Assembly: GCA_965215195.1 (NCBI GenBank)
Contig: CBDCDC010000002.1
Coordinates: 4,768,001 to 4,832,000, forward strand
DNA: 64,000 bases
Source of the DNA: Candidatus Latescibacterota bacterium
GTDB lineage: Bacteria; Latescibacterota; UBA2968; UBA8231
Direction of reading: 5' to 3'
Position numbers and translations under genes: made by a program
The notes under the pieces: model-generated
Seen by the model: the letters and a program-made list of their open reading frames with translations, nothing else
Told to the model about the DNA's origin: nothing
The model's database searches: none
Shown here: positions 33,396 to 64,000 of the stretch, in pieces
Layout: every line of letters begins with the position of its first letter
Position numbering within the stretch: position 1 is the first letter of the stretch

Positions 33396-34126
33396 TGCGG
33401 CAATTCGCCGACAAAGTCGTCCTAGTCACCGGCGCGGGCACTGGGATCGGCGCGGCCATAGCGTGCGGTTTTGCTGACGCAGGGGCGCGGGTGGCGTTTG
33501 TCGGGCGACGTCCCGAGCCGCTCGCGGCCGCGGCCGCCGGCCTCGATGCTGACCGGGTCCTAGTCCGCGCCTGCGACGTATCCGACCGCGGTGCCGTCGC
33601 GGCCTTAGCGTCGGCTGTCGCGGCCGAGTGGGGTGCCGTTGATGTGCTAGTCAACAACGCCGGCATCAACACCAATCCGCGCTCGGTCGGCGCAGTAGCA
33701 CCCGCGGACTGGGACCAGACCATTGCCATCAATCTCACCGGGGTGTACAACATGGTGCGGGCGGTGTTGCCGGGAATGCGGCAACAAAACGACGGCCTCA
33801 TCATCACCATTTCGTCCATTGCCGGCCTGCGGGCCAGCAAGCTAGCCGGTGCCGCGTATTCGGCCTCCAAGCACGGGGCAGTGGCCCTGACGAACTCGAT
33901 CAACGAGGAGGAAGTCGCGTCCGGCATCCGCGCCTGCGCGATTTGCCCTGGCGAGGTAGAGACGCCGATTTTGGCCCAGCGGCCCGAACCCGTCAGCGCC
34001 CAACGCCGGGCCGCCATGCTGCAACCCGAAGAGTTGGCCCAAGCCGCGCTCTTCGTGGCTGCGCTGCCGCCCCGCGCCTGTGTGCCCCTCTTGGTGATCA
34101 AGCCGACGGTGCAGTTGTTTCAGTAG
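33392..34126 (+). CDS. Short-chain dehydrogenase/reductase
   Basis: [17 protein letters not shown]; ATGA overlap with the upstream gene. Confidence 0.92.
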
Positions 34127-34128
34127 GG
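34071..34128 (+). repeat. Direct repeat copy 1 (3' end of the SDR gene), 58 bp
   Basis: 55/58 identical to 35860-35917. Confidence 0.95.
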
Positions 34129-34255: not shown

Positions 34256-35335
34256 ATGACTCTGACAAAAGTAAAATTGAGACGCTTTACTGCGTTCTCG
34301 AACTTGGAATTGGAGCTTTGCCCCGGCATTAACGTTTTAGTGGGTGCAAACGGCACAGGCAAGACCCATTTGATGAAGGTCCTATATGCGGCATGTGACT
34401 CTTCTAAAGCAGACGTCCACTTTGCCGAGAAGTTGATGCGGGTGTTACTTCCGTCGGGCCGCTTCCTAGGGCGACTAGTCAAACGGCAGCCGGGCAGTAC
34501 CAAGAGAGCCAAAGAAAACAAGGAAGCCAAGGAAATCCATGGCCTGATTGAGATATTAGCTAGCAGTCCGGTCGCATTCGTGGATGTGTATCGCGGCGAC
34601 CGGCGATTGAGAGTCCAGTTCTCCAATCGCATCAAATTACCAAATTCCGCCTACGTTTCTATAAGTGGTGCTGATTCTTGGAAAGATTCTTCATTAAAAA
34701 GTATCTATATTCCAGTGAAGGAGATGCTCTCTAACGCACCCGGCTTTCGCTCACTTTACTCGGAACGCGAAATTCACTTTGAAGAAATTTATGCGGACAT
34801 TCTGGACCGGGCTTACATCCCATTACTGCGCGGCAAATCGGATGCTTTACACAGGCGTTTGCTCACTCGTCTGCAAAAAGAGATCGACGGAAAAGTGATG
34901 ATCAAAAATGAGGAGTTTTTTCTAAAAAATAAAAAAGGAACCTTGGAGTTCACCCTGCTTGCTGAGGGCATGCGCAAGCTGGGATTGTTGTGGCTTTTAA
35001 TACAAAATGGCACTTTGCAGAGCGGCTCAGTACTGTTTTGGGATGAGCCTGAGACCAACCTGAACCCGAAGCTGTTAGGTACGCTAATTGATGTCCTGCT
35101 GCAACTGCAACGCGCTGGTGTTCAGGTATTCTTGGCGACCCACGATTACGTCATTCTCAAGGAGATTGATCTCCGTATACGCGATGAGGATGCGGTAGCC
35201 TTCCATTCATTTTACTTTGACGAGATGGGCGAGATAGCCTGTCACACGGCAAGTAACTATCTCGACATCCATCCCAACGCGATTGCGGATACCTTCACCG
35301 ATCTTTACAACCGGGAAATTGAGCGCGACCTATAA
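34256..35335 (+). CDS. ABC/AAA_21-type ATPase (defence/TA-associated)
   Basis: GANGTGKT Walker A, LAEGMRK signature, FWDEPETNLNP Walker B, ATHD H-loop. Confidence 0.88.
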   Translation: MTLTKVKLRRFTAFSNLELELCPGINVLVGANGTGKTHLMKVLYAACDSSKADVHFAEKLMRVLLPSGRFLGRLVKRQPGSTKRAKENKEAKEIHGLIEILASSPVAFVDVYRGDRRLRVQFSNRIKLPNSAYVSISGADSWKDSSLKSIYIPVKEMLSNAPGFRSLYSEREIHFEEIYADILDRAYIPLLRGKSDALHRRLLTRLQKEIDGKVMIKNEEFFLKNKKGTLEFTLLAEGMRKLGLLWLLIQNGTLQSGSVLFWDEPETNLNPKLLGTLIDVLLQLQRAGVQVFLATHDYVILKEIDLRIRDEDAVAFHSFYFDEMGEIACHTASNYLDIHPNAIADTFTDLYNREIERDL

Positions 35336-35856
35336 TGACCGTTCTTGAGGAAGGGGATCTGCAAATTACCATCGGCGACGCGATCAATGCGCGAAAGTTC
35401 GACGATGCCAACCACGGACTGAACAACTGTATGAAAGCGGTGGATTTCATCGTTGAGCTTCTTGACTGCTACCTGTTCATTGAAGTCAAAGACCCACAAG
35501 ATCCTCAGATACCTAAGCAAAGTCGCAACAACTTTCTTCGCAAAATTAAAAGCGGTGAGCTTGACGAGGATCTCAAATACAAGTACCGAGATTCCTTTCT
35601 CTACGAATGGGCGTCGGGCCGAGCCAACAAGCCCATTGACTACCTAGTACTGATTGCCATGGACGCCCTAGATAACGCCCTTTTACTGAATAGGACGGAA
35701 GATCTGAAGCGGAAGCTGCCCTTATTGGGACCGAGGGCACGTCCTTGGCCTCGCCCGACTGTTCGGAGTTGTGGCGTATTCAACATCGCGTCGTGGAGCA
35801 ACCGCTTCCCGCAGTATCCTATCAGGCGACAGAGTGCGGGAACGACGCATCCTTAA
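35335..35856 (+). CDS. Putative PD-(D/E)xK nuclease, partner of the ATPase
   Basis: KAVDFIVE...LFIEVKD; TAATG overlap with the ATPase. Confidence 0.65.
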   Translation: MTVLEEGDLQITIGDAINARKFDDANHGLNNCMKAVDFIVELLDCYLFIEVKDPQDPQIPKQSRNNFLRKIKSGELDEDLKYKYRDSFLYEWASGRANKPIDYLVLIAMDALDNALLLNRTEDLKRKLPLLGPRARPWPRPTVRSCGVFNIASWSNRFPQYPIRRQSAGTTHP

Positions 35857-35859
35857 TCG

Positions 35860-35917
35860 CCCGCGCCTGCGTGCTCCTCTTGGCGATCAAGCCGACGGTG
35901 CAGTTGTTTCAGTAGGG
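35860..35917 (+). repeat. Direct repeat copy 2: orphan duplicate of the SDR 3' end including its stop codon
   Basis: Encodes [17 protein letters not shown] versus [17 protein letters not shown]; begins 3 nt after the nuclease stop. Confidence 0.95.
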
Positions 35918-36059
35918 AGGGACAGTGGCGTCGGAGAAGATGCCGACTAAAGAGCGATACTGTACTATACTTGCTGAACGTTCTCTTGCGTCTAGAAGAA
36001 TTCCGCAAAGTAAAATTCGGTTGTGCATCGCCCTATGACAACGCAGACGAAGCCGATTG

Positions 36060-37957: not shown

Positions 37958-37959
37958 AA

Positions 37960-38211
37960 ATGACAACGCGGAAAATCGCAATCGATGTTCCAGAAAGTGT
38001 GCTGCTGGCTGAAAAGACCGACGAGCGCACTTTTGCACGTGAACTTCGCATGCTGGCCGCGGCCAAGCTCTATGAGCTCGGCCGTCTTTCGTCCGGGCGA
38101 GCTGCGGAGCTTGCTGGGATGGCGCGCGTGGAATTCCTATTGACGCTTGATCGCTACAAGGTCTTTCCACTTGAGACGGAGTTGAATGACCTAGAACGCG
38201 AGCATGTCTGA
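37960..38211 (+). CDS. UPF0175-family putative antitoxin
   Basis: AAAKLYELGRLSSGRAAELAGMARVEFL; ATG 37960. Confidence 0.85.
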   Translation: MTTRKIAIDVPESVLLAEKTDERTFARELRMLAAAKLYELGRLSSGRAAELAGMARVEFLLTLDRYKVFPLETELNDLEREHV

Positions 38212-38251
38212 GTTCATCAGCAACACGTCACCGCTGCTGTATCTTTATCGC
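38204..38251 (+). pseudogene. N-terminal remnant of a DUF3368-type PIN toxin
   Basis: MSEFISNTSPLLYLYR matches the (S)NTSPL start of DUF3368 PINs and overlaps the antitoxin stop; similarity then ends and the frame stops at 38341. Confidence 0.7.
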
Positions 38252-38300
38252 AAATCCATCGTCATGCGTCTTTCGTGGAATGAAATAATTGGAGAATACC

Positions 38301-39806: not shown

Positions 39807-39849
39807 AATAAGATGATTCTATTTCTAATCGAGTCGGAGGCGGATGTCC

Positions 39850-40000
39850 ACACTCGCCGATCTTACGCCCTAGACGCAATGCTGCCCGATCTGCGCTGGT
39901 ACGCTTCGCCTCGGAGCGAGAACGCGTGGAACATCTGTTTGCGCTTTACGAGCGGCTGCAAGCTCCGTTGGCGGCGGAAGCAGAGGGGAAGCGGAGGTGA
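39850..40000 (+). pseudogene. Degraded C-terminal remnant of an MmeI-like type IIL restriction-modification enzyme
   Basis: Frameshifted TLADL..DAM.PDLR followed by in-frame RFASERERVEHLFALYERLQAPL...* (39902-40000). Confidence 0.7.
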
Positions 40001-40036
40001 GGAGGCGAAAGATAAAGAAGCGTTGAGCTTGCTGCG

Positions 40037-43000: not shown

Positions 43001-43834
43001 AGCATGGTCGGAATCTTCTGCATAGGAAATGGCCTTAACCCCTCTGTGCCCCCATTTAGAGGCGGCATCGTCCGCATTACCCGGTTGAAAAGCATAGACT
43101 TGGCGTTCATTGATCTGTCTGTTTAGTCCTTCTAACAGATAATGAACAGGAGGATCGTCCGCCGCGTAGCCGATGAAGACAACGACGTACCTGTCAATGA
43201 TTTCCCGAAAGAAGGAAGTAGCCCAACCCTCCGAAAGATACGCCTGTCCAAATTGGGAACTGGACAGAACAAATCCATCGTCTTCAGCCCTTTGGTAATC
43301 AGGTGTAGCCTTACCGTGAAGATAGATAATGCCGTTCATATCATTCGGCCGCGACGGATCAGGCAAACGAGGTCGTTGCCACGATGAAAGGCCGCGATCA
43401 CAATCATCAAACAGGCGATCAAAGTTGGTCGTTACGACATGAACCAAACCTTCCATAGTGGTTGCGAGGTCGAGGATTATGCGATGGGCCGTCAAATCCG
43501 GTTCATTATCCGGTCGCAGCGCGAAAGCCACCGCCTCTTCTATAACGTCCATGGAAAACTCGCGCTCAAGCAGGCCGAATATCCGGTCTGCGGGGATTAC
43601 ACCAGCGACACTGGTTTGGGCCTCAATACTACGCGCTTCATCAAGTAGCTTCCGGGCTGGGCTATCAGCTAGGACCCCAAGTGTCTCCATAACTTTTTTT
43701 GCCAAACCAAAGAAGTCCGGCAGCTTTGCCTTAGCCCGTGAGACCCCAGCCCCACAGAAGAAAACTACTCGGCCCTCATCGCGGGCATGGAGCAGCTCAT
43801 CTGGAATCGCCGGGCCATTGTCCAAAAACCGCAT
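40037..43834 (-). CDS. Defence-associated sirtuin, Dsr1-like (SIR2 NADase + long helical region)
   Basis: NGPAIPDELL..RDEGRVVFFCGAGVS, TTNFD, YLHG, FIGYAADDPP; 1265 aa. Confidence 0.8.
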   Translation of the reverse strand: MRFLDNGPAIPDELLHARDEGRVVFFCGAGVSRAKAKLPDFFGLAKKVMETLGVLADSPARKLLDEARSIEAQTSVAGVIPADRIFGLLEREFSMDVIEEAVAFALRPDNEPDLTAHRIILDLATTMEGLVHVVTTNFDRLFDDCDRGLSSWQRPRLPDPSRPNDMNGIIYLHGKATPDYQRAEDDGFVLSSSQFGQAYLSEGWATSFFREIIDRYVVVFIGYAADDPPVHYLLEGLNRQINERQVYAFQPGNADDAASKWGHRGVKAISYAEDSDHAALWNTLEAWAQRARDLDKWYSEVINKAKQGPKSLSPHERGQVAHIVSTVEGVKKFSEGEKLPPAEWLCVFDKYRRYGEPGKLGGFLQEGPYVDPFDLYHIDSDMPPDRSDPAGHSSEREVPTDAWDAFNLSRIDKTTLRNDNFPSITGRWAYNVLPLPPRLRQMGAWIRGVASQPAAVWWAVRTTPLHPEIRSGIRWTLTRSQRPISPAVREAWYYLLEYWEQGRNRDADLVGWNELKRRISKDGWSRSVVRAYAACFRPYLRVEPLLGNPKPPEKQGEIGRSELIGLDVVYPADNSERIDIPNEWVAPVVVVLRKNLETALELETEIDRGGLGHISSIVLDQNTASDRKLRLSGAVIEFTSVFERLIRIDIEAARHEFSKWLSEDDAIFARLRIWAAGKPDLVSDDQFGSMLVDMSDDIFWDRSHEWDLLHTLLARWDRLSADTRVAIEKRLLKGRSRRKQEEDFEKQRTLSILARITWLSQKGCKLHLNLAEETDRLRGFVPDWKPEHVDKIVAYWGTRIGTMNTETDYSALLDIPLASVLSEAQSLSGRRDEPFVGYNPFSGLSNARPVRAFSALRTAASRGDFPDWEWSIFLNAEERKTDKPRFMALIAERLAGYLGNGATELVWPAASWLMNVSDRLFDQYPAGFHKVTSALIQALAKEPESSDSGVWQVDGVRDWMTTALNAPVGQIAQALFRNSQTNGMKMDGDFPLEHLEYADELLALPGDLRRYALAIFTYRINWFYTNNREWSEDNLLSALDSSGLDREAFWGGSLAYTPCQELFMRLKTHLLQLAREDGQTRREYRQGLSSIILSGWGSFIEGTSNRCVSNEELRDVLVQTDDEFRSHVLHAMRRSCTEERTRDKWTLLLPEFLRDVWPRQRKANSPAMSASLFDLAFCKEELFPELVETILPLLTKAEHLHLPLSENIAKKHPRQTLDLLYAVLPDNILYWPFGIEDILASIIKADPTLKTNEKFLELKRRWDSR

Positions 43835-52582: not shown

Positions 52583-52639
52583 CTACGCATCCGAGCGGTT
52601 ATACGTCCCACAAAAGCGGCGATGCGGTGTAGATTAACT

Positions 52640-55273
52640 TCAATTGTTCGCCGGGATGATCTTTTCTACTAATTGCTGCCGCATGTCCTTCCCATCAACC
52701 ATTTTTTCTACGACCACGAACAGGCCCTTACTGTTGCTTTCCCGCTCCCACAATGCGCCAATGGTCCGCTTTTCGTTGGTATCTGATCCTTCGGCGATAT
52801 GTGCGCCCTTGTATTCGACGACGAGGAGACGACCGTCGTCTAGCAAGGCGACAAAGTCCGGGTAGAATTTGTCTGTTGCGGTGGGCAGCCAAAACGAGTT
52901 GGGATGACGCGCTACATTGCGAATCCAGTACTTCACTACCGACAGACTGTCGATGATCTGAGCGCATTGCACTTCCTCGCCGTCGTCCGCACCGTCAAAG
53001 GCGGGAACGCGATCCGGGCCCAAAAAATGCTTGCGCGGTTTCCAGCTACCGCGATAGTGCCGTTGATCCCAGTACATGTCGTCGGCAAATGTGAAGGCCG
53101 TGTCGAACGAGACCGTTGTGTTGGCCTCGGATTCAAAGAGGTACTGCTGATAGACATTGCTCCGTTCCGCTTGGCGAATGGCCGCGATCTTGTTCTCGAT
53201 TTTCTTGGCGAGCAGAAATTTGCAACGCATTAGCACGGCAATGGACATGCCGCGTGTGTTGAGCAGGTGATCGACTAGTTGGCGCAGCCATTTGAGCAAT
53301 TCGCTCTGGTGAATATCCATCTGGCGCACCTGCCGGTCGAGCCACAGGACGAGCGCCTCGGCGGTCCAGCCTTCGACGGCAATGTCCAGTGCCAATTGCT
53401 CCTCTTCGCTGGCGAACTGGTAGGTGATGCGGTTGCCGTCGAGGTCAATTTCAAAGCTGCGCGCCGTCTCGCGGATAGTGAACTCCTGCTCGTCCATTTT
53501 TGGCGAATAACCGGACAGGGACCAGTCGTGGTATTCCATGAACACATCTGTATCGGCGAATTCTAGGGTGCCCTCGATTTCCGCCATGAGACGCGGAATT
53601 TTGAATGGCTGCCCTTGTTCGACCGGGGATAGGTGCTCTTTGACTGCGGCGCGGTGTTGGGCAATGGCTGTGGCAAATCCTTTTCGCTCCTGCTCGGACA
53701 ACGTCTTGTAGATTGCCTGCTCGCGCTCTTGATTGATCCAGCCGGTAAGCGCGATTTCGACCTGTCCTTCAGCGGTTTCGCGCACTAGCAATCCCTCGTG
53801 TTCAGCCTCTTTGAGTTCAGACAGGATTTCCGGGGTTGCCGGGGTCGTATATCTGAATACCGGCTCCAGCTTTTCCTGCGGACCAAACAAGTCTCTCTGA
53901 AAGTCAAGTGTGTGCTGCACCGGCTCGATATTGTCGAGAGCTTCGTCTTCCTCAAAGCCCATGTCCACCAATTTGTCGGCCAAGGCGCGTGCCGCCTCGC
54001 CAAAAGACGGCTCGGACAGGAAGGCGTAGGCTTTGTTGAGGTCGGCTGTTTGGCGTTGCTTGGCGTAGGGCATCCGCAGTACGCGGCCGAGCAGTTGCTC
54101 GACGTCGGTTGCGCTTTGGATTCGCGATACCGAGCAGAAAATGTAGGCGAAGGAGCAGTCCCATCCTTCTTTGAGCGCCTCGACTGTAATGACGTATTCG
54201 ATAGGACAGGTGCGGTCGAACAAGTCGATGCCGTTGAGTTCGCGCTGGTCGCCCGTGGCGATGGCGATTTTACTTTCGGGGATCTGCTCAATATCCATCA
54301 GGTGCTTTTTCAGGGCTGCGACTGTTACCTCTTGGTTTTTCGGCTGGGCTTGGAACAAGACGATGGGACGGATGTAGTCGGCATCGTTCTTGGCGGTCTT
54401 GGCAAGCGAAGCACAGGCGGAGATGGCTCCGCTCACCGCGCTTTGCCAAGCGTCGTGCTCGGCAAGCATGATGGGCAGTTTGATCATTTCCTCGCGCTTG
54501 AGTTCTTGGGCGGCGACGCTGTACAGGATGTTCGACTTGCGCTGTGGGGTCGCCGTGAACTCGACGATGGCACAGGGATTTACCCGCACCTGCATTTCCC
54601 GCGTCAGGCCGGTGACCGCGTTGTGCGCCTCATCGACGATCATCAACGGACGGTGCCGGTGCAGCAGGTTGGCAAAGGAGAATTTGACGGTGCCATTGTC
54701 CAGCGTTTCCAAGCCCGGCGCTGTTTGCGGCACCGCGGCAAAGTGCGGTTCCATATCCTCATTGTGGGCATACACCTTGCGCCCTTCGGTGCTCTTCACC
54801 CGCAGCGTTTGAATGGTGCCGACCACAATGCAGCAGTGGTCGTGCAAGTCGTGCGGGCGGATATGGGTGAAGTCGGCGATGTCGAATACACGCACCCGGC
54901 CGTCGAAAGCCTCGTCTAGCACTTGCCGATAAGCATGGCGGGTGTTTTTCAGGGCTTCGGCTGTCTGCCGGCGGATGGTGTTAGTCGGCACTAGCCACAG
55001 CACCAGTGGATAGTCCTTTTCGATATAGGCATTGCGGGCGATGGAGACAGCGTGGGCGGCGAGGACTGTTTTGCCGCCACCAGTAGGTAAGCGCAGGCAG
55101 ACGTAGGGAACGCCTGGCAATTCTTTTAGCGGTGCGTAAGATTCGAGCCGCGTAGTCTGCTCGGGCTCTTTTGTTATAGCTTCGTAGGCGTTTTTGGGAC
55201 CGGCGATACGCGTTTCCTCAAAGAAGCGGCGCAGGATGGCGAGGGTGTCGGCTTGATATTGTTTTAGCTGCAT
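52640..55273 (-). CDS. res: Type III restriction endonuclease subunit
   Basis: PTGGGKT, DEAH, EGWD, QLLGRVLR, YPDF...VEYKG. Confidence 0.92.
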   Translation of the reverse strand: MQLKQYQADTLAILRRFFEETRIAGPKNAYEAITKEPEQTTRLESYAPLKELPGVPYVCLRLPTGGGKTVLAAHAVSIARNAYIEKDYPLVLWLVPTNTIRRQTAEALKNTRHAYRQVLDEAFDGRVRVFDIADFTHIRPHDLHDHCCIVVGTIQTLRVKSTEGRKVYAHNEDMEPHFAAVPQTAPGLETLDNGTVKFSFANLLHRHRPLMIVDEAHNAVTGLTREMQVRVNPCAIVEFTATPQRKSNILYSVAAQELKREEMIKLPIMLAEHDAWQSAVSGAISACASLAKTAKNDADYIRPIVLFQAQPKNQEVTVAALKKHLMDIEQIPESKIAIATGDQRELNGIDLFDRTCPIEYVITVEALKEGWDCSFAYIFCSVSRIQSATDVEQLLGRVLRMPYAKQRQTADLNKAYAFLSEPSFGEAARALADKLVDMGFEEDEALDNIEPVQHTLDFQRDLFGPQEKLEPVFRYTTPATPEILSELKEAEHEGLLVRETAEGQVEIALTGWINQEREQAIYKTLSEQERKGFATAIAQHRAAVKEHLSPVEQGQPFKIPRLMAEIEGTLEFADTDVFMEYHDWSLSGYSPKMDEQEFTIRETARSFEIDLDGNRITYQFASEEEQLALDIAVEGWTAEALVLWLDRQVRQMDIHQSELLKWLRQLVDHLLNTRGMSIAVLMRCKFLLAKKIENKIAAIRQAERSNVYQQYLFESEANTTVSFDTAFTFADDMYWDQRHYRGSWKPRKHFLGPDRVPAFDGADDGEEVQCAQIIDSLSVVKYWIRNVARHPNSFWLPTATDKFYPDFVALLDDGRLLVVEYKGAHIAEGSDTNEKRTIGALWERESNSKGLFVVVEKMVDGKDMRQQLVEKIIPANN

Positions 55274-55276
55274 GGG

Positions 55277-56803
55277 TCAGGTGCGCGCTTTGATATCGTA
55301 GGGCGTCTGTTTGAAGACAATGTCCTCCCGGTCAAGCGTCGCTGGCGTCAAGCGCGACTGCTCGCCATAGACCGTGAGCGGCCCGGCGAAATGGGCATCC
55401 TTGCGCGCAATTTCTTCCCGAATTACAGCGAGTGTTGCACGGGTCAAGACATTGCCTTTGTCGCCGAGGATGCCGTTGTACAGCAGGGCATAAGCGCGAC
55501 CGTCGTGCAGGCCGAGGAAAGGCGAATCGCCGTTGCCGCGCCACGGACGCCCGGTCTCGCTGAAATAGACGTGGGCGGCCAGCACGGAAAAGCGAATGTC
55601 CGAGCGGATATGCCCTTCCTCGTCGAACACGGGCGGGCCGAGGCGGTAGAAGCGAAAGCCGCCGCCGCCTTGCCAGCCGACGCTTTTGGAGATGCCGCCT
55701 TGTTCGCCTTCTATGACTTTGTTCAGGCGCGGGACGCAATGGCTGATGGTATGCTCGCCCATTTCAATGCCGATGTAGCGGCGACCCATTTTGTGCGCGA
55801 CGGCTGCGGTGGTGCCGGAGCCGAGGAAGGAGTCGAGGACGAGGTCGCCGGGGTTGGTGGCGATGTGGAGGATGCGTTGGATGAGGCGTTCGGGCTTGGG
55901 CGTTGGAAAGACATTATCGAGATTAAATTCCTTGACCTCTTTCTTTGCATCCTGATTATGACCCACCTCAATATGAGGCCATATTGTAACCGGGGTAATG
56001 CCATCCTGAGTTTCTGAAAGAAACTTCTTAATTCTTGGAACATTATTTCCCTTCCTGCCAAACCATATTCGATTGTCCTCGACAAGATCAATAAACCGTT
56101 CTTTAGAAAATTGCCAACTTCTGCCCTTCGGCGGCCAAAATTCTTTCCCAGATAGATTTTGAATCGGATAAATATATTTTTCATTCGGTGTTTTAACTTG
56201 TATAGGCTGTGATGCCCACGGCCCTCGGGGATCATCATCAGGATTGGAAAAACCTCCCCTCTGTTCTTCACTTCGAGGAAGCAAGTTGATCTTCCAGTTT
56301 TCCTTCCTCTTTGCATGGACAACTATATGGTCATGATTATCGCTGAACCACCGCGCATCATTGGCACGAGTGTGTTTTTTTTGCCATACCACATTTGCTA
56401 CAAAGTTACCCCGTCCGAAAATTTCATCCATAATGATTTTTAGGTAATGCCCCTCGTCGTCATCAATAATTACCCAGATAGATCCTTCCTCTGTTATCAG
56501 TTCACGCAATAATTCCAAGCGGGGATACATCATCTCCAACCACTGAGCATGTTCCAAATTGTCGTCGTAATGCTCAAAGTCCTTGCGAGTGTTATAAGGC
56601 GGATCAATAAAAACGCACCTCACCTGTCCGGCGTAGAACGGGAGCAACGCCTTGAGCGCGTCCAGATTGTCGCCTTGGATGAGCATGTTGCCAGCGTCCG
56701 GGTCGCCGGCCGACAGGTCAGGGGCTTCTGCGAGGAGACGATAGGGGACGTGTGAGGCGGCGTGGATGTCGGCGTCGCGTGTTAGCCAGTGTAGGGTCGG
56801 CAT
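55277..56803 (-). CDS. mod: Type III DNA methyltransferase subunit
   Basis: IQGDNL, IDPPYN, TPKPERLI, DSFLGSGTT. Confidence 0.93.
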   Translation of the reverse strand: MPTLHWLTRDADIHAASHVPYRLLAEAPDLSAGDPDAGNMLIQGDNLDALKALLPFYAGQVRCVFIDPPYNTRKDFEHYDDNLEHAQWLEMMYPRLELLRELITEEGSIWVIIDDDEGHYLKIIMDEIFGRGNFVANVVWQKKHTRANDARWFSDNHDHIVVHAKRKENWKINLLPRSEEQRGGFSNPDDDPRGPWASQPIQVKTPNEKYIYPIQNLSGKEFWPPKGRSWQFSKERFIDLVEDNRIWFGRKGNNVPRIKKFLSETQDGITPVTIWPHIEVGHNQDAKKEVKEFNLDNVFPTPKPERLIQRILHIATNPGDLVLDSFLGSGTTAAVAHKMGRRYIGIEMGEHTISHCVPRLNKVIEGEQGGISKSVGWQGGGGFRFYRLGPPVFDEEGHIRSDIRFSVLAAHVYFSETGRPWRGNGDSPFLGLHDGRAYALLYNGILGDKGNVLTRATLAVIREEIARKDAHFAGPLTVYGEQSRLTPATLDREDIVFKQTPYDIKART

Positions 56804-56871
56804 GGGTTAGTAAATGTGCTTTCAGGAGAAAGTTTAAAAATTCTATTAAACGGACCCTAAGGTAGTGTTTT

Positions 56872-57528
56872 CTAGCGTCTCGATCTCGCTACTCTCTCCA
56901 TCTCTTGAACTTCGTCTAAACAACAACTCTTGTACTTTGCACCGCTACCACAGGGACAAGGTTCATTTCTTCCAGCTTTATGTCGAGCGATATGGAATAT
57001 ATTCCTTGCGTGTTCCATGAATCCCAAATCTCCATGTGAATACTCATCCCACAGATTCTTTCGAGCCGCTTCGATCCCAAACTGATCGGTATATGACATT
57101 CGATACAAGAAGGGAATAACCAAATCATAAAGAAAACGGGCAATCGTCAGATTTTTCTCACGCGCATACCTAATACCTAAACAGCATGAATCGTCACAGG
57201 GGTTAACGTGTAAATCGATCTTCTTTACGCCGCATTTCTTCGCAATCGCATTGGATCTTCCACCTATCTCAAACACTGTAGGCCAGCCATTGGGATGTAC
57301 GGCATCAGTGTCTAGACGGATCTCAATCTCAAACACGTCGCAAATAACACTATCTGAGTTTCTAATAGTATCATCGCGCTCAAGTCTTTCGATTAGCATC
57401 CTTTTGGTTACACCATCAAAGCAAGCGCAGAAGTCCAATTCTCCAACGATCCTCTGAGCATTTTGATCGTACACCAAACTAGGGAAAGAATATCTCAGCC
57501 ACTCGACATCGCTATTCGTCAACTTCAT
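56872..57528 (-). CDS. CBASS-associated E2-like protein with C-terminal SEC-C zinc motif
   Basis: WPTVFE...LHVNPCDDSCCLG (E2-like H/C), EYSHG, GRNEPCPCGSGAKYKSCC; ATGA overlap with the CD-NTase. Confidence 0.7.
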   Translation of the reverse strand: MKLTNSDVEWLRYSFPSLVYDQNAQRIVGELDFCACFDGVTKRMLIERLERDDTIRNSDSVICDVFEIEIRLDTDAVHPNGWPTVFEIGGRSNAIAKKCGVKKIDLHVNPCDDSCCLGIRYAREKNLTIARFLYDLVIPFLYRMSYTDQFGIEAARKNLWDEYSHGDLGFMEHARNIFHIARHKAGRNEPCPCGSGAKYKSCCLDEVQEMERVARSRR

Positions 57529-58499
57529 CGCGCATACGGCTTCCTAGGCGTTACCGTGACGGTGCCTACCCCTGTTCCTCGACGGCCCCCACTATTCCCA
57601 CCGCCACCATCACCTCGCCTTTTCCCAAAACTATCTCCAAACACGTCGCGCCACTTTTCGATGCTGTCATCATGTTCTACGGCATCGAAAGCTTTGTTGA
57701 TCTTGTCGTTGTAGATTTTGAACAGAGCCCTGAAGTGAGCGTACTTCTTTTGATCCCAGTGCCGCGTGAAATCTTCTTTCGGTAAGACGGGATTGGTGAT
57801 CCTCGGCATCACTGGGTTGCTTTGCAAGAAATCGTTTATGCGATTCGAGACCGTCTTCAGGGCATCAGGCAAAGTTCTGAAGAGGTAGCCATCATTTTCA
57901 CCATACACGGTGTGACCTATAAGCGTGGTCAAGAGAATTGATTTCGCAGTGAAATTCCCCTTGTGGTCTCTGAGATATTTCAAGAGCCTCGTGACCCGTT
58001 TGAGGTTTCCGTGTGTGACCGTGGTCTTATCGTTGAACCAATCCCTGTACCCTGTTCCATCGGTTGGCTCGAATTTGTTGGTCTCGTTATTGCAGATGTA
58101 CTGATCCCTGTTTCTCGAAGGTATGCACGGGACAATGTCTAGGTGGAAATCGCCCGCATAGTCTAGGACCACGCATCTGGTTTTCCGACGCGCTTTCTCC
58201 GCATATACCCCGTTTTCTCTGAGGCATTGGTATAGCTCGTTGATGTAGTCCCTAGGATATTTGCTTATATACTTTATATACAGCAATACGTCGGCATCAT
58301 ATTCTTGGTTCTCTCTGACGGGTTTGATGATCGTACGTAGGGCATACGACCCTTGGCGTTCGATCTTTATGTAAGAGTCCAAGTTTCTGGACAAAAATTC
58401 GCTGATAGCCTTCACACTATCATTTAATCTGTCGAGCCGTGAGGGATTGAGATTTACCTCACCGTCGAGAAAGTCGTTGAAGAACTGAGTATGCTTCAT
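57525..58499 (-). CDS. cGAS/DncV-like nucleotidyltransferase (CD-NTase/SMODS)
   Basis: QGSYALRTIIKP, EYDADV, FHLDIVP, RLLKYLRD, NPVLPKEDF. Confidence 0.92.
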   Translation of the reverse strand: MKHTQFFNDFLDGEVNLNPSRLDRLNDSVKAISEFLSRNLDSYIKIERQGSYALRTIIKPVRENQEYDADVLLYIKYISKYPRDYINELYQCLRENGVYAEKARRKTRCVVLDYAGDFHLDIVPCIPSRNRDQYICNNETNKFEPTDGTGYRDWFNDKTTVTHGNLKRVTRLLKYLRDHKGNFTAKSILLTTLIGHTVYGENDGYLFRTLPDALKTVSNRINDFLQSNPVMPRITNPVLPKEDFTRHWDQKKYAHFRALFKIYNDKINKAFDAVEHDDSIEKWRDVFGDSFGKRRGDGGGGNSGGRRGTGVGTVTVTPRKPYAR

Positions 58500-58585
58500 G
58501 TCGAAGATCCTCCTATTGGGTGTTCTTTATGGTGAATGCTGGAGCGGAATTTACAACAAATGGATGGTAGTAAGCAATTGGTATT

Positions 58586-59569
58586 TTATTCACTGTGGCT
58601 ACCCCTTTCGATAGCGAGGAATTCGGCAATCCTTGGTGATTGGTGGGTAAAGATATGGTCCGCCTTTGAGATCCAATCGTCTCGCTTTCGCACATCGTCC
58701 AAGGGCAATGGCTGGTCCGATTCAAAGGTCAACCGAAAAATTTTCTCTGACCTGAGCGGGCTCTCACCCATGAGTAAGCAAAGCATGTTGTGGGCACTTT
58801 CGGACTGAAGGTTGAAGATAACGTTGATGAACTTGCTGCGCTGCCAGCGAGTCAGCAGGCCCCACCCTTGCCAGCTATAGAGTAAACAGTCTTTCCATTT
58901 ACCTTGGCTCCGAGGATAGAATACCTTGCTCTTACCAGTGCCAATGGAGAGGACTCGCACTCTTTTAAGCGGAATTTTGAGGCGATAATGAGCATCAATG
59001 ATCGCCACGAGAGATGGATTATTGGCCCAAAGGCCACCATCAGCGAGTTGGTACTTGTTATCAACTACGACAGGGTCGAAGTACGTCGGAGCAGAGCAGG
59101 AGGCTAAGACCGCATCCGACACACGCACATTAGGATCCCGAACAAAGTCGTCGTGGTATTTTGTTTTGAAAACATGTACACAACCGTTGCCAATGTCAAC
59201 GGAAGGTAGGATAAGTGGGATTTCAACTTGACCCAAAGTCATCTCGCCCAACATTTCCTCAAGGCGCGTCTTGAGGTTTTTACTCGAATATCGGCTCGTG
59301 AAAAGCTGTAAGGGACCGAGACTGGCTCGTAGTCGAGGGGCGAAGATCGCTTTGCCATGAGTTTTATAGAAGTCGGCCAATTGCACGGCCGTCTTGCCAC
59401 AGGCCAGCCCGGCGGCCAGAATCGCTCCTGTACTGGTGCCAGCCAATAGGTGAAAGTGGCTTCTCCAATCGAGTTGCCACTCCTCTTCCATTCTTTTTAA
59501 TAGATGGGCAGCAAAGAGTCCTCGAAATCCACCCCCATCAATAGCTAGGATGTAAAATGGCTCATTCAC
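58586..59569 (-). CDS. capV: CBASS patatin-like phospholipase effector
   Basis: DGGGFRG, GTSTG, SAPTYF, DGGLWANNP; GTG 59569 after GGAGG; adjacent to the CD-NTase. Confidence 0.88.
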   Translation of the reverse strand: MNEPFYILAIDGGGFRGLFAAHLLKRMEEEWQLDWRSHFHLLAGTSTGAILAAGLACGKTAVQLADFYKTHGKAIFAPRLRASLGPLQLFTSRYSSKNLKTRLEEMLGEMTLGQVEIPLILPSVDIGNGCVHVFKTKYHDDFVRDPNVRVSDAVLASCSAPTYFDPVVVDNKYQLADGGLWANNPSLVAIIDAHYRLKIPLKRVRVLSIGTGKSKVFYPRSQGKWKDCLLYSWQGWGLLTRWQRSKFINVIFNLQSESAHNMLCLLMGESPLRSEKIFRLTFESDQPLPLDDVRKRDDWISKADHIFTHQSPRIAEFLAIERGSHSE

Positions 59570-59642
59570 GATAATCGCCTCCAAAATTACGCATCAGATC
59601 GCGAAAACTGGTAAGCCTCGATCTGATGCGATACCTCGCCAC

Positions 59643-60098
59643 CTACTCGGCAAGAAACCCGTCGGCGTCTTCGAGAGTCAGGTAGCCGGCCTTGATTAAT
59701 TTCAACACCAAGTCCTCCGTCTGATAGATTACCAAGTCTCTACGCCGGCGTTGCCCTTCAACGCATGCCCTTCGGTCCTGAAGTCCGGCGACCCAATTCC
59801 GCGTAAGCGCAACGGCCAGAACGGCGCACTCGCCGGCTCCAAGCCGCCCACCTGCCCGAAGCTCAGCAAATAGGGCGACCTCCACCGGATTGCGAACACT
59901 TTGTAAATCAAGTATGCCCTCAGCCACAGCATCTTCAACCGCCTCTTTTTGTTCTGGACGCCTTATTTCACCAAGCACTTGGTCGGGCAACACGACCGGT
60001 GTGCCAAGCTGACCGAGTAACTCAACACGACCGATTTTCACGAAATTCAGCAAGACCGACGCATCGAGGACAATCGGCACCGCGCTTGTCTGCTGCAT
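59643..60098 (-). CDS. PIN-domain protein (DUF3368-like), possibly shortened by a premature stop
   Basis: VLDASVLLNF, LGAGECAVLA, QDRRA. Confidence 0.75.
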   Translation of the reverse strand: MQQTSAVPIVLDASVLLNFVKIGRVELLGQLGTPVVLPDQVLGEIRRPEQKEAVEDAVAEGILDLQSVRNPVEVALFAELRAGGRLGAGECAVLAVALTRNWVAGLQDRRACVEGQRRRRDLVIYQTEDLVLKLIKAGYLTLEDADGFLAE

Positions 60099-60108
60099 TC
60101 AAAGTACC

Positions 60109-61338
60109 TCAATCCGAATCCGCCAAATCGAACATCGTCTCGTCGTCAATATCCAACAATCGCCCCACTTCGAGTAGCCGGCCCTGCGAAATTTCCCCAC
60201 GCCACCACGCTTCCAGAACCAGCGACAGAATCTGCCAATCCAATTCGCGGTCCCAATGTGCCTCGTCTGCGGAATTTTCTACATCGGAAAATGCTCTTAC
60301 CGCACGCTGGTATTGATTAGCCTCTGCGGTCTGGTCGAGAAGCGTTTGGGCTTGTTCTAGGCTCACGAGGTTCAAGCCGCGCAACCGCCAAACCGCCGCG
60401 GCATAGCTCACCTCAAAATGCCAAGCCAAAAGTGCCACGTCTGCGTAGGTTACATGCTGTGAGCGCGCCGGGCTACGCAACTGACCTTGGATACCCTCTT
60501 CGGTGACCGCATCCAGCGCCGCTTCCTCGCGACGCGTACCCCTCCCTTTGCCCAAGTTGTGCAGAAAATCTCGTACGCCCTCTTCGGGCATGAGGAAGGC
60601 GGCGGCAAAGGCATTGGCCCGCTGCTCGGTTTTCGTCTTGGCATTGTGGGCACTCGTAACCGTGGCCGGCTCATCGCGGTCCATGAGTGCGTGACCGTGT
60701 TCGTGGGCGTAGGAAAACCGCCGCCGCACCGGTGCTTGGGTGAGGTTGGCCAAAATCGCCAAGCCAAAGTCGGGACTGCTCAGAAAGAGACCAGAGATTT
60801 CATCCGGCAGAGGCAACGCGGCCGCCCATATATTCTGGTGGGCTAAGGTCTCAGGCACTTTAACGGGCGCATGGCCCAAATCGAGACGCCGACGCTCCTG
60901 CTCGGCTACGAGTTGACCTTGGTCAATGGCCTGTCCGACCGATCGAGGGGGCGGCAACTCGTAACGTGGCAGGGAAACGACGGCCCTGCGGCCAATTAGC
61001 TGTCGCAACGACGCCCCTTCTCTGAGCAAGCGCAAACAACGCGACGCTTGCTTTTGAACGACCTCGCCTTGCAAGCCGGGTTCGGCGCGAAAGAGCGCGA
61101 CGACCGGGTCTTCCTTTTGGACCGAGATATGCGGATCGACGAACCACTCGATCGGCCGACCGTACAAATCCGCAAGACGAGTTAGCTCGAGCGTGGAAAC
61201 CTGCCGCTGGCCGGATTCCATGAGGCTGATCGCCGATCTCCGTAGGCCGAGTGCCGCACCGGCGACCTCCTGCGTGAGTTGCCGACTTTCCCGTGCCACG
61301 CGCAATCGCCGCCCGATTTCTTCAAGGGTAATGAGCAT
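60109..61338 (-). CDS. XRE-HTH + ImmA/IrrE metallopeptidase fusion
   Basis: LTQEVAG...SAISLMESGQR HTH; RRRFSYAHEHGH; EQRANAFAAAFLMP; GGAGG RBS before ATG 61338. Confidence 0.92.
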   Translation of the reverse strand: MLITLEEIGRRLRVARESRQLTQEVAGAALGLRRSAISLMESGQRQVSTLELTRLADLYGRPIEWFVDPHISVQKEDPVVALFRAEPGLQGEVVQKQASRCLRLLREGASLRQLIGRRAVVSLPRYELPPPRSVGQAIDQGQLVAEQERRRLDLGHAPVKVPETLAHQNIWAAALPLPDEISGLFLSSPDFGLAILANLTQAPVRRRFSYAHEHGHALMDRDEPATVTSAHNAKTKTEQRANAFAAAFLMPEEGVRDFLHNLGKGRGTRREEAALDAVTEEGIQGQLRSPARSQHVTYADVALLAWHFEVSYAAAVWRLRGLNLVSLEQAQTLLDQTAEANQYQRAVRAFSDVENSADEAHWDRELDWQILSLVLEAWWRGEISQGRLLEVGRLLDIDDETMFDLADSD

Positions 61339-61368
61339 GGAGCACCTCCGAGTCAATGACGGCAGTAG

Positions 61369-61397
61369 AGTTTAGATTATCGAACGAATCTTGTCAA
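61369..61397 (-). promoter_or_regulatory. Sigma70-like promoter with an imperfect palindrome in the spacer
   Basis: Minus strand TTGACA-N17-TAAACT; AGATT-N8-AATCT at 61374-61391. Confidence 0.7.
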
Positions 61398-61624
61398 ATA
61401 TAGACATATTCAAAGCGAAAGAGATGTACGAGATATTTTTAGTTATTGCAGTAATCCGCGTTACGCCTGTTGACATAAATCTCGCGGCGGGCGGGGGGAT
61501 CAGTGAGCTAGGGGGTCTCTTGGCTTGGTACGACGCGAGACCGCAAAGCTGGTCCGTCCCCCGCCACCCGTGTAATTTTCAAAGTGACCCACCTACTACA
61601 CGACACCAGCCCTCAGCCTGCCAA

Positions 61625-61671
61625 GGATCGAGGGCATCTTGCCCTCGGCGAGGGCGGGACGCCCGCGATCC
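61625..61671. repeat. REP-like imperfect GC-rich palindrome
   Basis: GGATCGAGGGCATCTTGCCCTC-GGC-GAGGGCGGGACGCCCGCGATCC (18/22 Watson-Crick complementary). Confidence 0.6.
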
Positions 61672-61761
61672 CGGACCCAGCGGAAACCGCAGAAAAGGCG
61701 TACTCAAAGTAAGGGGTGCCTACTTTAGGTGGCGTGTACTAAGGTGACCCACTACCAACGC

Positions 61762-61915
61762 CCGGTGCGGCCCGGACGATCTGTCCGGCGCGGCTGTTGG
61801 CTATTTCGCCTTGTTCAACGGCGATCCGCCCATTGACGATTACCCAGTTGATGCCCTGCGGATAGCGGTAGGGATCGGCAAAGTCGGCGCACTCGCCGAT
61901 AGCTGCGGGATCGAA
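61762..61915 (-). pseudogene. Orphan duplicate of the 3' end of the D-aminoacylase gene (154 bp)
   Basis: 148/154 identical to 62526-62679; the frame continues GVGSGSP* to 61739 instead of AST*. Confidence 0.95.
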
Positions 61916-61925
61916 GAAAGCTGTC

Positions 61926-62138
61926 TCAAGTGTCTGCAACAAGCTGCTGAGCCTGTTGGTCAAGCACCCTAATGGTGCCCTGAATTGCGTCGACCTCGCG
62001 CTCCTCGAAGTACGCCTCACCGCACTGAGCGCAGACCCAAGCCGGGACTGTGTCGAGGACCAAGTGATAGCCGTTGCGGTCGACGTGGAAGGGTGCTTTC
62101 GCGCGCTTCATCTGCCCATGACAGTGGATGCAGTTCAT
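61926..62138 (-). CDS. YgiT-type zinc-finger protein (putative antitoxin)
   Basis: MNCIHC...VPAWVCAQCGEAYF; ATGA overlap with the upstream gene. Confidence 0.88.
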   Translation of the reverse strand: MNCIHCHGQMKRAKAPFHVDRNGYHLVLDTVPAWVCAQCGEAYFEEREVDAIQGTIRVLDQQAQQLVADT

Positions 62139-62461
62139 TTTGGTCTCCTTGTTCGCAAGTCTTGTTCCCACTCGGCCTCTGTGGGAAGGTACGCTGTGAT
62201 TACTGCGAGAAAATCCTCCTTAGGCGCACAAACTACATGGATATCTCGCTGGTCAACTCCGTGGCCATGCAGCAGGCAGCTATGGCCGCGTGCGTTCTCG
62301 GGATAGTCCTCAATTAGCTCGCCCTGCATGATAACAACTCTAATCTCATTTGGTCTAATCATTCTGTCCGGTCGTGCCATTTGGCGAACTGCATGGGGAA
62401 GAAAGAGCACACGTTGAGTAGCGGCGCGTTGTACTTGTTCAAGAAATTCTTGTGAAGCCAT
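62135..62461 (-). CDS. DUF4258 protein (RelE/BrnT-like putative toxin)
   Basis: LPHAVRQM, GELIEDYP..RGHSCL, IHVVCA, VITAYLP. Confidence 0.85.
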   Translation of the reverse strand: MASQEFLEQVQRAATQRVLFLPHAVRQMARPDRMIRPNEIRVVIMQGELIEDYPENARGHSCLLHGHGVDQRDIHVVCAPKEDFLAVITAYLPTEAEWEQDLRTRRPK

Positions 62462-62514
62462 TCCCATACTCGCCTAAAATTTCGGCAGCCGACATCAGTA
62501 CCTCAAAGGCTAGC

Positions 62515-64000
62515 TCAGGTCGAAGCCGGTGCGGCCCGGACGATCTGTCCGGCGCGGCTGTTGGCTATTTCGCCTTGTTCAACGGCGATCCGCCCATTGA
62601 CGATTACCCAGTCAATGCCCTGCGGATAGCGGTAGGGGTCGGCAAAGTCGGCGCACTCGCCAATAGCTTTGGGATCGAAAACCACGAGGTCGGCCCAGTA
62701 GCCCTCGCGCAATAGACCGCGTGCGCCTAGGCGGAAGCGGGCAGCCGGGTGGCCGGTGAGCTTGTGGATGGCCTCTGCCCAGCGCAGCGCACCCTGCTCG
62801 CGGACGAAGCGGCGCAGGAAGTAGGGGAAAGCCCCATAGGAGCGGGGGTGGTGCTTGCCCTCGGCCAAGGTGCCCTCGGGCACCAGCGAGAAGCCGTCGG
62901 AGATGACGCCGCCGGCCGGATGGCGGGCGATGTTGAGGAAGTCCTCCTCAGACACGTCCTCGGCCAGCATCCACGGCCGCGCACGCTCTTCGACGAGGAT
63001 GTCGCAGACCGCGTCGTGGGGCTGCTGGCCGCGCCGCCGACCGATCTCGGCAAAGCTCAAGCCAACTAGGGCGGCGTTTTGCTCGGCGCTGCCCAGCCAG
63101 ATCTTGTCCCATTGCCCATCCCGCGCCAAGTTGCGCTTGCGGCTGCCGCCGCTCTCGGCCCCGTACTGCCGGGTGTCCTGCTCGATCTGGGCGCGGGTCT
63201 CCGGGTCTTGTAGCCGCCGGAGCAGGGCCTCGTCGCCGCCGGCCAAGGCCCACGGGGGCAACAGCGACTTTAGGGTAGTGCTGCCAACCGTATAGGGAAT
63301 GGCGTCGCAGCTAATGTCGCAGCCTGCGCGGCGCTTCTGGTCAATGGCGGCGAGCAGGTCGCGGGTCGCGCCGATCATGGGCGCACCAGGCTGCATGTGC
63401 GAGACGTGGGCGGCAACCGCAGCTTGCTCGCCAACGGCCATGACCTCGCCGACAGCTTGGGCAATCGACTCGGTCTGGTTGCGGATGTGCGAGGTGTAGA
63501 TGCCGCCGTACTCAGAGACGACCTTGCCCAACTCGACGAGTTCCTCCAGCGCCGCATACGGGCCGGGCGCGTAGGCCAAGCCCGACGACAGCCCCATTGC
63601 GCCGTCTTCCATTGCGCGGGCCACGAGTGCCTTCATTTGCTCCATTTCGGCCGCAGTCGGCGGGCGATCTTCGTAGCCCATGGCAGCGACGCGCACATTG
63701 CCGTGGCCGACCAACGTCGCGGCATTCGTGCCCAGTCCATGGGCTTCGAGCCGTTGGAAGTAGTCGCCGAAATGGGTCCAGTCGCACGCCAAGCCGCGGG
63801 TCATGGCCGGGTCGAGCGGGCCGTAGTACGGCTCGTAGTCGCGGGTGGGCGCGGCCGAGACGCCGCAGTTGCCCATGACTTGGGTCGTAATGCCCTGCAT
63901 CAGGGAACTGAGCGCGCGGCCGTCGAGGGCGATGGTCAGGTCCGAATGCGTGTGGATGTCGATAAAGCCGGGGCAGGCGATGCGGCCCTCGGCGTCAATG
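62515..64000 (-). CDS. N-acyl-D-amino-acid deacylase (5' end outside window)
   Basis: PGFIDIHTHSD near the window edge, GNCG, SHIR, HPRSYGAF, ADLVVFDP. Confidence 0.92.
   Translation of the reverse strand, partial: IDAEGRIACPGFIDIHTHSDLTIALDGRALSSLMQGITTQVMGNCGVSAAPTRDYEPYYGPLDPAMTRGLACDWTHFGDYFQRLEAHGLGTNAATLVGHGNVRVAAMGYEDRPPTAAEMEQMKALVARAMEDGAMGLSSGLAYAPGPYAALEELVELGKVVSEYGGIYTSHIRNQTESIAQAVGEVMAVGEQAAVAAHVSHMQPGAPMIGATRDLLAAIDQKRRAGCDISCDAIPYTVGSTTLKSLLPPWALAGGDEALLRRLQDPETRAQIEQDTRQYGAESGGSRKRNLARDGQWDKIWLGSAEQNAALVGLSFAEIGRRRGQQPHDAVCDILVEERARPWMLAEDVSEEDFLNIARHPAGGVISDGFSLVPEGTLAEGKHHPRSYGAFPYFLRRFVREQGALRWAEAIHKLTGHPAARFRLGARGLLREGYWADLVVFDPKAIGECADFADPYRYPQGIDWVIVNGRIAVEQGEIANSRAGQIVRAAPAST

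Follow-up and report, generated by a model that had tools for sequence, protein, structure and literature searches.

Insertion with long target duplication (ILTD) was reportedly described for restriction-modification (RM) systems by Nobusato et al. in 2000 (Gene 259:99). According to Furuta, Abe and Kobayashi 2010 (PMC2853133), who cite Nobusato et al. 2000, RM genes of all types in several phyla are surrounded by target duplications of more than 30 bp (46-423 bp in the tables), and the insert comes without any other mobile element. In that paper, many of the repeats extend across a start or stop codon and thereby leave the target gene intact, the cases lean towards naturally competent species, and the mechanism is left open, with double-strand breaks by RM enzymes suggested by the authors. 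A passage of the review by Mruk and Kobayashi (PMC3874152) states this footprint for RM systems and says of toxin-antitoxin (TA) systems only that they, too, occur at regular chromosomal positions. In a limited literature search, TA cargo appeared in none of the titles listed of papers using the term 'long target duplication', and nothing relevant was found on partial duplication of genes flanking TA systems. In the present study, we analyzed a 64,000-nt stretch of DNA from a Candidatus Latescibacterota genome (GCA_965215195.1, contig CBDCDC010000002.1, positions 4,768,001 to 4,832,000), hereafter the window, in which a 154-bp copy of the 3' end of a D-aminoacylase-like amidohydrolase gene lies displaced behind a DUF4258/YgiT TA cassette. 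We propose, with a probability of about one half, that this orphan copy is a recombination scar of the ILTD class that arose by the merging of two alleles and was stabilised by addiction. The TA and defence cargo, the high density of events in one genome and the structural clues to the mechanism are new here. The footprint itself is known, and the original prediction, which had called it possibly undescribed, was not upheld on this point.

Position numbers below refer to the window, and all genes of the D-aminoacylase/DUF4258/YgiT locus lie on the minus strand. The gene-attached copy of a repeat is called T, the orphan copy T', the flanking core genes X and Y or Z, and the genome studied G000; the coordinates of the features are collected in Table 1. 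A repeat search together with a script count indicated that the two 154-nt copies form a single two-copy family with 148 identical positions (96%). Identity dropped sharply beyond both edges, and exactly two copies of the repeat were present genome-wide. Read along the minus strand, the amidohydrolase gene was followed by the DUF4258 gene, the overlapping YgiT gene and, 10 nt past the YgiT stop codon (61926-61928), the orphan copy. The six mismatches between T and T' all fell within the gene-proximal 58 nt, and the distal 96 nt were identical. The encoded protein ended in RAAPGVGSGSP at the orphan and in RAAPAST at the intact gene. These results confirmed the original prediction, which had described a 3'-end duplication around the DUF4258-YgiT pair whose orphan copy carries a different tail. 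The insert was surrounded by direct repeats of more than 30 bp (154 bp) derived from the target locus, as in ILTD, and no mobility gene was present in the cassette, whose open reading frames (ORFs) were DUF4258 and YgiT only. A diversity-generating retroelement was rejected as the source of the six mismatches, which by eye were not adenine-specific; the cassette held no reverse transcriptase.

To place the locus in its genomic context, we compared it with 30 relatives, and amidohydrolase orthologues with 80-93% nucleotide identity were found in 17 genomes of the genus. In most of the 17 orthologues (the arrangement seen in G010), the amidohydrolase stop codon overlapped the start of an ANKH-like gene (GGGCATGA). 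In the window, ANKH homology resumed exactly at the ATG at 52582, the start of the ANKH-like gene. Since the two core genes overlap in relatives, the island of about 10 kb sits exactly between them. Two relatives, G018 and G005, provided empty sites, in which the gene end was followed by about 100-140 bp and the HTH-M78 gene, with no cassette, second copy or repeat resembling a miniature inverted-repeat transposable element (MITE). The gene tail AAPAST was common to the window and G005, and ATPALT was found in G018, whose match at the gene locus extended to 62508. According to the alignment with G018 and G005, both the intact tail and the 17 nt following T represent ancestral sequence, and the cassette starts 5-7 nt past the stop codon. 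These 17 nt were not duplicated in the orphan. Compared with relatives, T' had the G000-specific codon aac in common with T, and at five of the six bases differing from T it carried the G018 state.

The orphan was directly abutted by a MITE-like dispersed repeat. A 280-nt query (61521-61800) gave 125 BLAST hits genome-wide, mostly to the core of this repeat; about 30 were full-length at 90% identity or more, and some copies aligned as far as 61764. A search of Rfam with 61350-61950 returned chance-level matches only, far under gathering scores, and hence no family for the MITE-like repeat. Copies of this repeat were also noted in or beside several gene-end islands, for example at C2 1599982-1600132, 3396215-3396386 and 4652403-4652552.

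Both junctions of the duplication were bridged by contigs of sequencing runs from two studies, namely X18 and X20 (737 nt, no differences) and, from another study, X1 and X2. Run X1 was about 96-97% identical to the window, and the evidence from X1 and X2 applies to the contig-covered parts of the stretch. In one X1 contig (depth 7.9), 61576 was joined directly to 61921, so that the cassette was present and the orphan and MITE (61577-61920) were absent, with homology resuming at 61576. A window-form contig with the joint between orphan and cassette had a depth of 9.8, and the shared cassette contig a depth of 15.8. The loose end at 62511 and the joint at 61921 in X1 coincided with the cassette boundaries. 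These observations suggest, as a hint, a co-existing allele in X1 that has the cassette and lacks both the orphan and the MITE.

The cassette showed the two-gene layout and the family domains of a type II TA module, with the toxin and antitoxin genes overlapping by a few nucleotides. Growth arrest by the DUF4258 toxin and its neutralisation by the YgiT antitoxin are assumed from the family annotation. The segment 61918-62510 recurred in G018 at another locus with 89% identity, and no repeats bracketing the cassette were found around that G018 copy or at the four YgiT-bearing loci checked. The left boundary of the cassette was common to locus L101 of a Terriglobia metagenome-assembled genome (MAG). 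Protein relatives of the cassette with 52-88% amino acid identity were found in 34 loci across many phyla, including 75-88% identity in MAGs of Nitrospirales, Binatia, Entotheonella, Gammaproteobacteria and Latescibacterota (L079-L112). The nucleotide homology was limited almost exactly to the two cassette genes, which indicates recent cross-phylum transfer. Because the 590-bp unit ends 5 nt past the antitoxin stop codon, it leaves too little space for an integron attC site. Long flanking repeats were present at 3 of the 34 cassette loci from other phyla, so the suggestion that the pattern is a feature of this lineage was too narrow. In two Acidobacteriota MAGs, relatives of the cassette were bracketed by a 219-bp duplication of the 3'-end type (L104, 1170-1383/3557-3775) and by a 259-bp duplication of the 5'-end type (L106, 2340-2597/3627-3884).

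To evaluate the recurrence of this geometry, we performed a self-megablast of the 6.13-Mb genome. It yielded 335 short-range direct-repeat pairs, and we kept the 57 that were two-copy, 40-500 bp long, at least 90% identical and 200-8000 bp apart. One copy lay at a gene 3' end with the orphan downstream in 25 of the 57 (24 by gene context plus the case of a short-chain dehydrogenase/reductase (SDR) gene in the window). A clear mirror geometry at a gene 5' end was seen in 6 pairs and an ambiguous one in 3, six pairs lay within one gene or between paralogues, and 17 were other or unclassified. The rough gene caller missed low-scoring genes, including SDR and DUF4258, so the 17 remaining pairs may hide more gene-end cases. 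In 16 of the 57 pairs, no more than 12 nt separated the end of the gene-side copy from the stop codon of an ORF of at least 150 amino acids; 2000 random relocations gave 2.0 such pairs on average and 7 at most, which indicates that the pattern is not due to chance. The recurrence that had been predicted was thus confirmed, and at the SDR gene the same geometry was found with a 58-nt repeat of 95% identity around HEC-02A/HEC-02B cargo.

The cargo was enriched for TA, RM and defence genes, as had been expected. By a strict list, TA/RM domains were present in 16 of 63 cargo ORFs and in 8 of 137 ORFs of 20 random 6.5-kb regions (odds ratio 5.5, Fisher p 2.3e-4), and 15 of 33 events carried clear TA/RM cargo. 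The TA or toxin-like cargo comprised DUF4258 (three events), PIN (two), Fic/DOC (two), ParE, HicB, BrnT, Gp49 with HTH_37, SocA_Panacea and NYN. RM genes were carried by events 8 and 11, and the RM cargo comprised an N6_N4 methylase and an Eco57I-type enzyme. A domain scan of the inserts of the gene-end class detected no integrase, transposase, resolvase or DDE domain, and no shared motif, terminal motif or inverted repeats were found at the cargo ends in 33 junction sets. The repeats were unrelated in sequence and ranged from 43 to 273 bp. Both properties had been anticipated in the original prediction, the lack of integrases from the inserts and the lack of common sequence among the repeats. 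At C2 3394307-3397760, three copies of the 5' end of one gene bracketed two cargos.

Several events were informative about the structure of the joints. In case 33, a 933-bp NYN cargo followed a 96-bp T ending exactly at TGA, the joints had at most 2 nt of microhomology, and a single T with both flanks was found in G001, G018, G005 and G012 (4 of the 5 relatives tested). In case 41, a VapBC-like cargo (795 bp) was associated with a 206-bp T, and X-T-Y without the insert was found in 7 of the 30 genus genomes. In both cases the second copy ran on into ancestral downstream sequence, giving X-T-insert-T-Y. At its end, the insert of case 41 held a 48-nt copy of part of the downstream core gene. In case 48, comparison with G018 and G012, in which X-Fic-Z is uninterrupted, revealed that the inserted block consisted of 74 nt of X followed by a second cargo and that a blunt joint connected it to a 373-bp copy of the beginning of Z. 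The core-gene pieces in the inserts of cases 48 and 41 indicate that the donor DNA came from the same hotspot. The joints inspected, including those of cases 33, 41 and 48, were blunt with 0-3 nt of microhomology. Case 39 was shared with other species and case 14 with G012, so some scars are old. No clean empty site was found for loci 0 and 14, only hotspots with different contents, and the cargo of locus 0 was also present in G005. At the hotspot of case 48, G001 (C1 6381073-6387252) had a separate orphan derived from the 5' end of the downstream gene, together with another cargo (about 3.8 kb), so the process seems to operate in further species of the genus as well.

The differences between T and T' at codon positions 1, 2 and 3 numbered 40, 27 and 82. 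In the pairs with five or fewer differences, 35 of 49 were at position 3 (p 2.8e-4 against 0.46, the share assumed for a decaying orphan beside a constrained gene). As these differences are mostly synonymous, the two copies look like two functional alleles. The synonymous bias, the core-gene pieces in inserts and the orphan-less form in X1 support in substance the integrase-free, homology-anchored route that had been predicted. None of the three outcomes named beforehand as refuting it was observed, since cases were numerous, the cargo was enriched and the junctions were spanned by contigs.

The sequences show directly that the scar exists and recurs, that its cargo is biased, that relatives have empty sites and how the joints are built. 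For the order of events, the role of addiction and the arrival of the donor DNA, we infer the following. At the hotspot between the D-aminoacylase-like and ANKH-like core genes, two alternative alleles would have merged, neither replacing the other. The first would have carried the 590-bp DUF4258/YgiT cassette directly past the stop codon, and the second the MITE at the end of the gene. The merge would consist of one homologous exchange in the shared flanks and one illegitimate joint that is essentially blunt and lies just behind the antitoxin stop codon, which would make the process a duplicative form of homology-facilitated illegitimate recombination or a case of 'resistance to replacement'. 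Because the loss of a TA or RM module is harmful through post-segregational killing, replacement and deletion would be counter-selected, and additive products with a duplicated core-gene piece would survive. Addiction may then shield the cassette from deletion between the direct repeats, and repeated events would pile up modules and orphan fragments at gene ends.

This merging has several counterparts among described processes. Homology-facilitated illegitimate recombination in natural transformation (de Vries and Wackernagel 2002) is said to combine one homologous anchor with one joint of low microhomology and to need no integrase. In its classical form the recipient DNA between anchor and joint is deleted, whereas the joint here is placed so that recipient DNA becomes doubled and the resident cassette survives. 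Handa et al. 2001 (Mol Microbiol 40:932) reportedly observed that a chromosomal RM complex resists replacement by homologous DNA, the survivors keeping the RM genes and carrying rearrangements. Their work concerned a single RM system of a model bacterium in the laboratory; the present scars are natural and have mostly TA cargo. Orphan toxin-tip/immunity modules of Rhs and contact-dependent inhibition (CDI) systems likewise consist of an intact gene, a small protective cassette and a displaced 3' fragment, and form through homologous exchange in the conserved part of the gene. There, however, the displaced fragment is the toxin domain and the cargo its immunity gene, whereas here the genes are unrelated housekeeping genes and the module is self-contained. 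In form, the scars match the RM inserts with long target duplication. Both are a few kb in size and lack mobility genes, and both have long, variable direct repeats derived from the target (30-423 bp for the RM inserts), empty sites in relatives, repeats that often span start or stop codons, and addictive cargo. Unlike in the published RM screens, the cargo behind the amidohydrolase gene is a TA pair, and across the genome type II TA pairs and other defence genes predominate, with RM genes also represented. A single genome holds more than 30 events, fragments of the other flanking core gene are present in some inserts, and the copies differ mostly at synonymous sites, which suggests allele merging rather than a staggered cut.

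The original ILTD reading is a true long target-site duplication, in which an arriving cassette is ligated into a break with staggered nicks (50-270 nt) and fill-in duplicates the target. The perfect X-T-cargo-T-Y structures with empty sites in cases 33 and 41 fit it well, as do the blunt joints, the occurrence of cassettes at other loci in relatives and the complete identity of some repeat pairs. It leaves unexplained why the inserts of cases 41 and 48 hold pieces of the other flanking core gene, why the copy differences are skewed to third codon positions, why ancestral downstream sequence does not follow the orphan in the window, and how the X1 form can have the cassette without the orphan. 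Canonical non-homologous end joining was rejected as the source of the blunt joints, with no hits for Ku and a LigD primase-polymerase score of 23.7 bits, under the cut-off of 27.4; this also counts against ligation into a break. We regard a true target-site duplication as unlikely.

A tandem duplication reaching from the end of X to the start of Z, followed by the swap of one cargo copy in a double crossover, would leave two addictive cargos holding the duplication in place. The joints between the Z fragment and T' in cases 41 and 48 are exactly tandem-duplication joints, and both repeat pairs are highly similar. This scheme needs two steps, though, a fragment of the second flanking gene is absent in 23 of the 25 3'-end events, and tandem duplication alone does not explain the orphan-less X1 form, so we regard it as rather improbable.

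We consider site-specific integration very improbable. The repeats would then be attL and attR of small elements that lack an integrase and depend on a tyrosine or serine recombinase acting in trans, comparable to cis-mobilizable elements (CIMEs) and gene-3'-end islands. The order of intact gene, cargo and displaced 3' fragment and the tight, reproducible boundaries of the 590-bp unit resemble such elements, and islands at the 3' ends of genes or tRNAs are likewise flanked by direct repeats of the gene 3' end. The scars differ from these islands in that they lack an integrase and a common core sequence and carry only 0.5-3 kb of cargo, which is very small. The unrelated repeats of variable length, the 33 junction sets without a common motif, the inserts without a recombinase gene and the G018 cassette copy without a flanking repeat all speak against this explanation. 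Concatenation of two strain haplotypes of polymorphic hotspots during assembly is barely credible, since the two junctions of the amidohydrolase duplication lie inside contigs of runs from two studies, which excludes the artefact for those junctions, cases 14 and 39 are shared with genomes of other species, and the same footprint is documented for isolate genomes in PMC2853133, even though the structures resemble two alleles in series, the MAG comes from a mixed population and the joints of cases 41 and 48 were seen in G000 only.

Several points weigh against the merging of two alleles. The last 17 nt are missing from the orphan, and the MITE-like repeat stands behind it in place of the ancestral downstream sequence, so an extra MITE-linked event is needed. 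Clean cases such as case 33 fit a plain staggered-break target duplication equally well, and the synonymous bias could stem from later homologous exchange into the gene-attached copy. The presence of the cassette at unrelated loci in relatives such as G018 means that it must also move by another route. The relatives compared are other species, and the donor alleles are putative. We treat the orphan-less form in X1 as a hint because it stands on a single contig in which one side of the joint is covered by only 30 nt (the k-1 overlap), a type of joint flagged as unreliable. The genome is a MAG, and the contig check of the joints covers the orphan's locus only. Of the competence genes, which the original prediction had proposed to check, ComEC was looked for and found; ComEC alone does not show competence.

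The way in which TA and defence genes enter and accumulate at chromosomal hotspots without an integrase or transposase is an open question of defence-island biology. In the genome studied, more than 30 natural scars can be examined whose joints are resolvable, and there are stacked events as well as empty sites in sister species. These scars widen the footprint known for RM systems to TA and other defence cargo, and the model of a homologous anchor, an illegitimate joint and selection by addiction is testable. In a broader version, which is possible but has the odds somewhat against it, addictive modules (TA, RM and some defence systems) would turn attempted allelic replacement at inter-gene hotspots into additive, duplication-forming recombination. 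The orphans would then be a genome-wide, datable record of 'failed replacements', and this integrase-free route would be a main growth route of defence and TA islands in Latescibacterota and probably in many phyla. If the model of anchor, joint and addiction holds, orphan gene-end fragments could be used in any genome to locate acquisition events and put them in order.

Table 1. Features of the amidohydrolase and SDR loci in the window (T, gene-attached repeat copy; T', orphan copy).
Feature	Position	Strand	Basis
D-aminoacylase-like amidohydrolase (core gene X), 3' part	62515..64000 (call extends to 64134 in window coordinates)	-	Pfam Amidohydro_3/Amidohydro_1
Repeat copy T, gene-attached, codons FDPKAIGE...RAAP	62526..62679	-	repeat search, script alignment
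17 nt of ancestral sequence (last 3 codons, stop, about 6 nt) between T and cassette	62509..62525	-	alignment with G018 and G005 empty sites
590-bp mobile TA unit: 43-nt leader, toxin, antitoxin, 5 nt past stop	61921..62510	-	
DUF4258-family toxin gene, 110 aa	62135..62467	-	PF14076, 70.3 bits, E 1.7e-19
YgiT-type zinc-finger (MqsA-like) antitoxin gene, 71 aa	61926..62141	-	TIGR03831, 42.2 bits (cut-off 20.2); weak MqsA_antitoxin Pfam match
Orphan copy T', displaced amidohydrolase 3' fragment	61762..61915	-	148/154 to T
Tail GVGSGSP and stop after T', read from sequence of longer copies of the adjoining dispersed repeat	61739..61761	-	
MITE-like dispersed repeat, directly abutting T'	61577..61764 (core 61594-61743, about 150 bp)	.	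BLAST
Island of about 10 kb, amidohydrolase stop to ANKH-like start	52583..62514	-	Pfam, PADLOC
SDR gene	33392-34126	+	
Copy T of the SDR case: last 18 codons and stop	34071..34128	+	
Cargo: HEC-02A ATPase (AAA_21) and HEC-02B	34256..35856	+	PADLOC 406 and 202 bits; Pfam AAA_21
Orphan T' of the SDR 3' end, 58 nt, 95%	35860..35917	+	

Beyond the TA cassette, the island between the two core genes (content at 52640-61356) comprised an HTH-M78 (RmrA/CapP-like) regulator, PDC-S70, a cyclic-oligonucleotide-based antiphage signalling system (CBASS) and a type III RM system (REase_III, MTase_III). The CBASS genes were a patatin/phospholipase effector, a cyclase and an E2-like gene. A second short repeated element was located at 61521-61592, between the MITE-like repeat and the HTH-M78 promoter; further copies lay at C2 2867083-2867153 and 2681082-2681138 (85%).

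At the second case in the window, the SDR gene ended 2 nt before the end of its repeat, and the orphan was followed by a HEC-01A/mad3-like ATPase gene and then a mad4-like gene. The region 36057-43834 also contained a UPF0175 gene, an ankyrin-repeat gene with 99-bp periodic repeats (38289-39806) and a Dsr1-type SIR2 gene of 1265 amino acids. A different kind of duplication was observed at locus L039 (G000 C2 4136763-4143160), where two segments of an HlyD-family gene were copied 5.4-5.9 kb downstream as an internally deleted fragment. IS4/IS5 transposase genes lay in between, and this kind of duplication is linked to insertion sequences.

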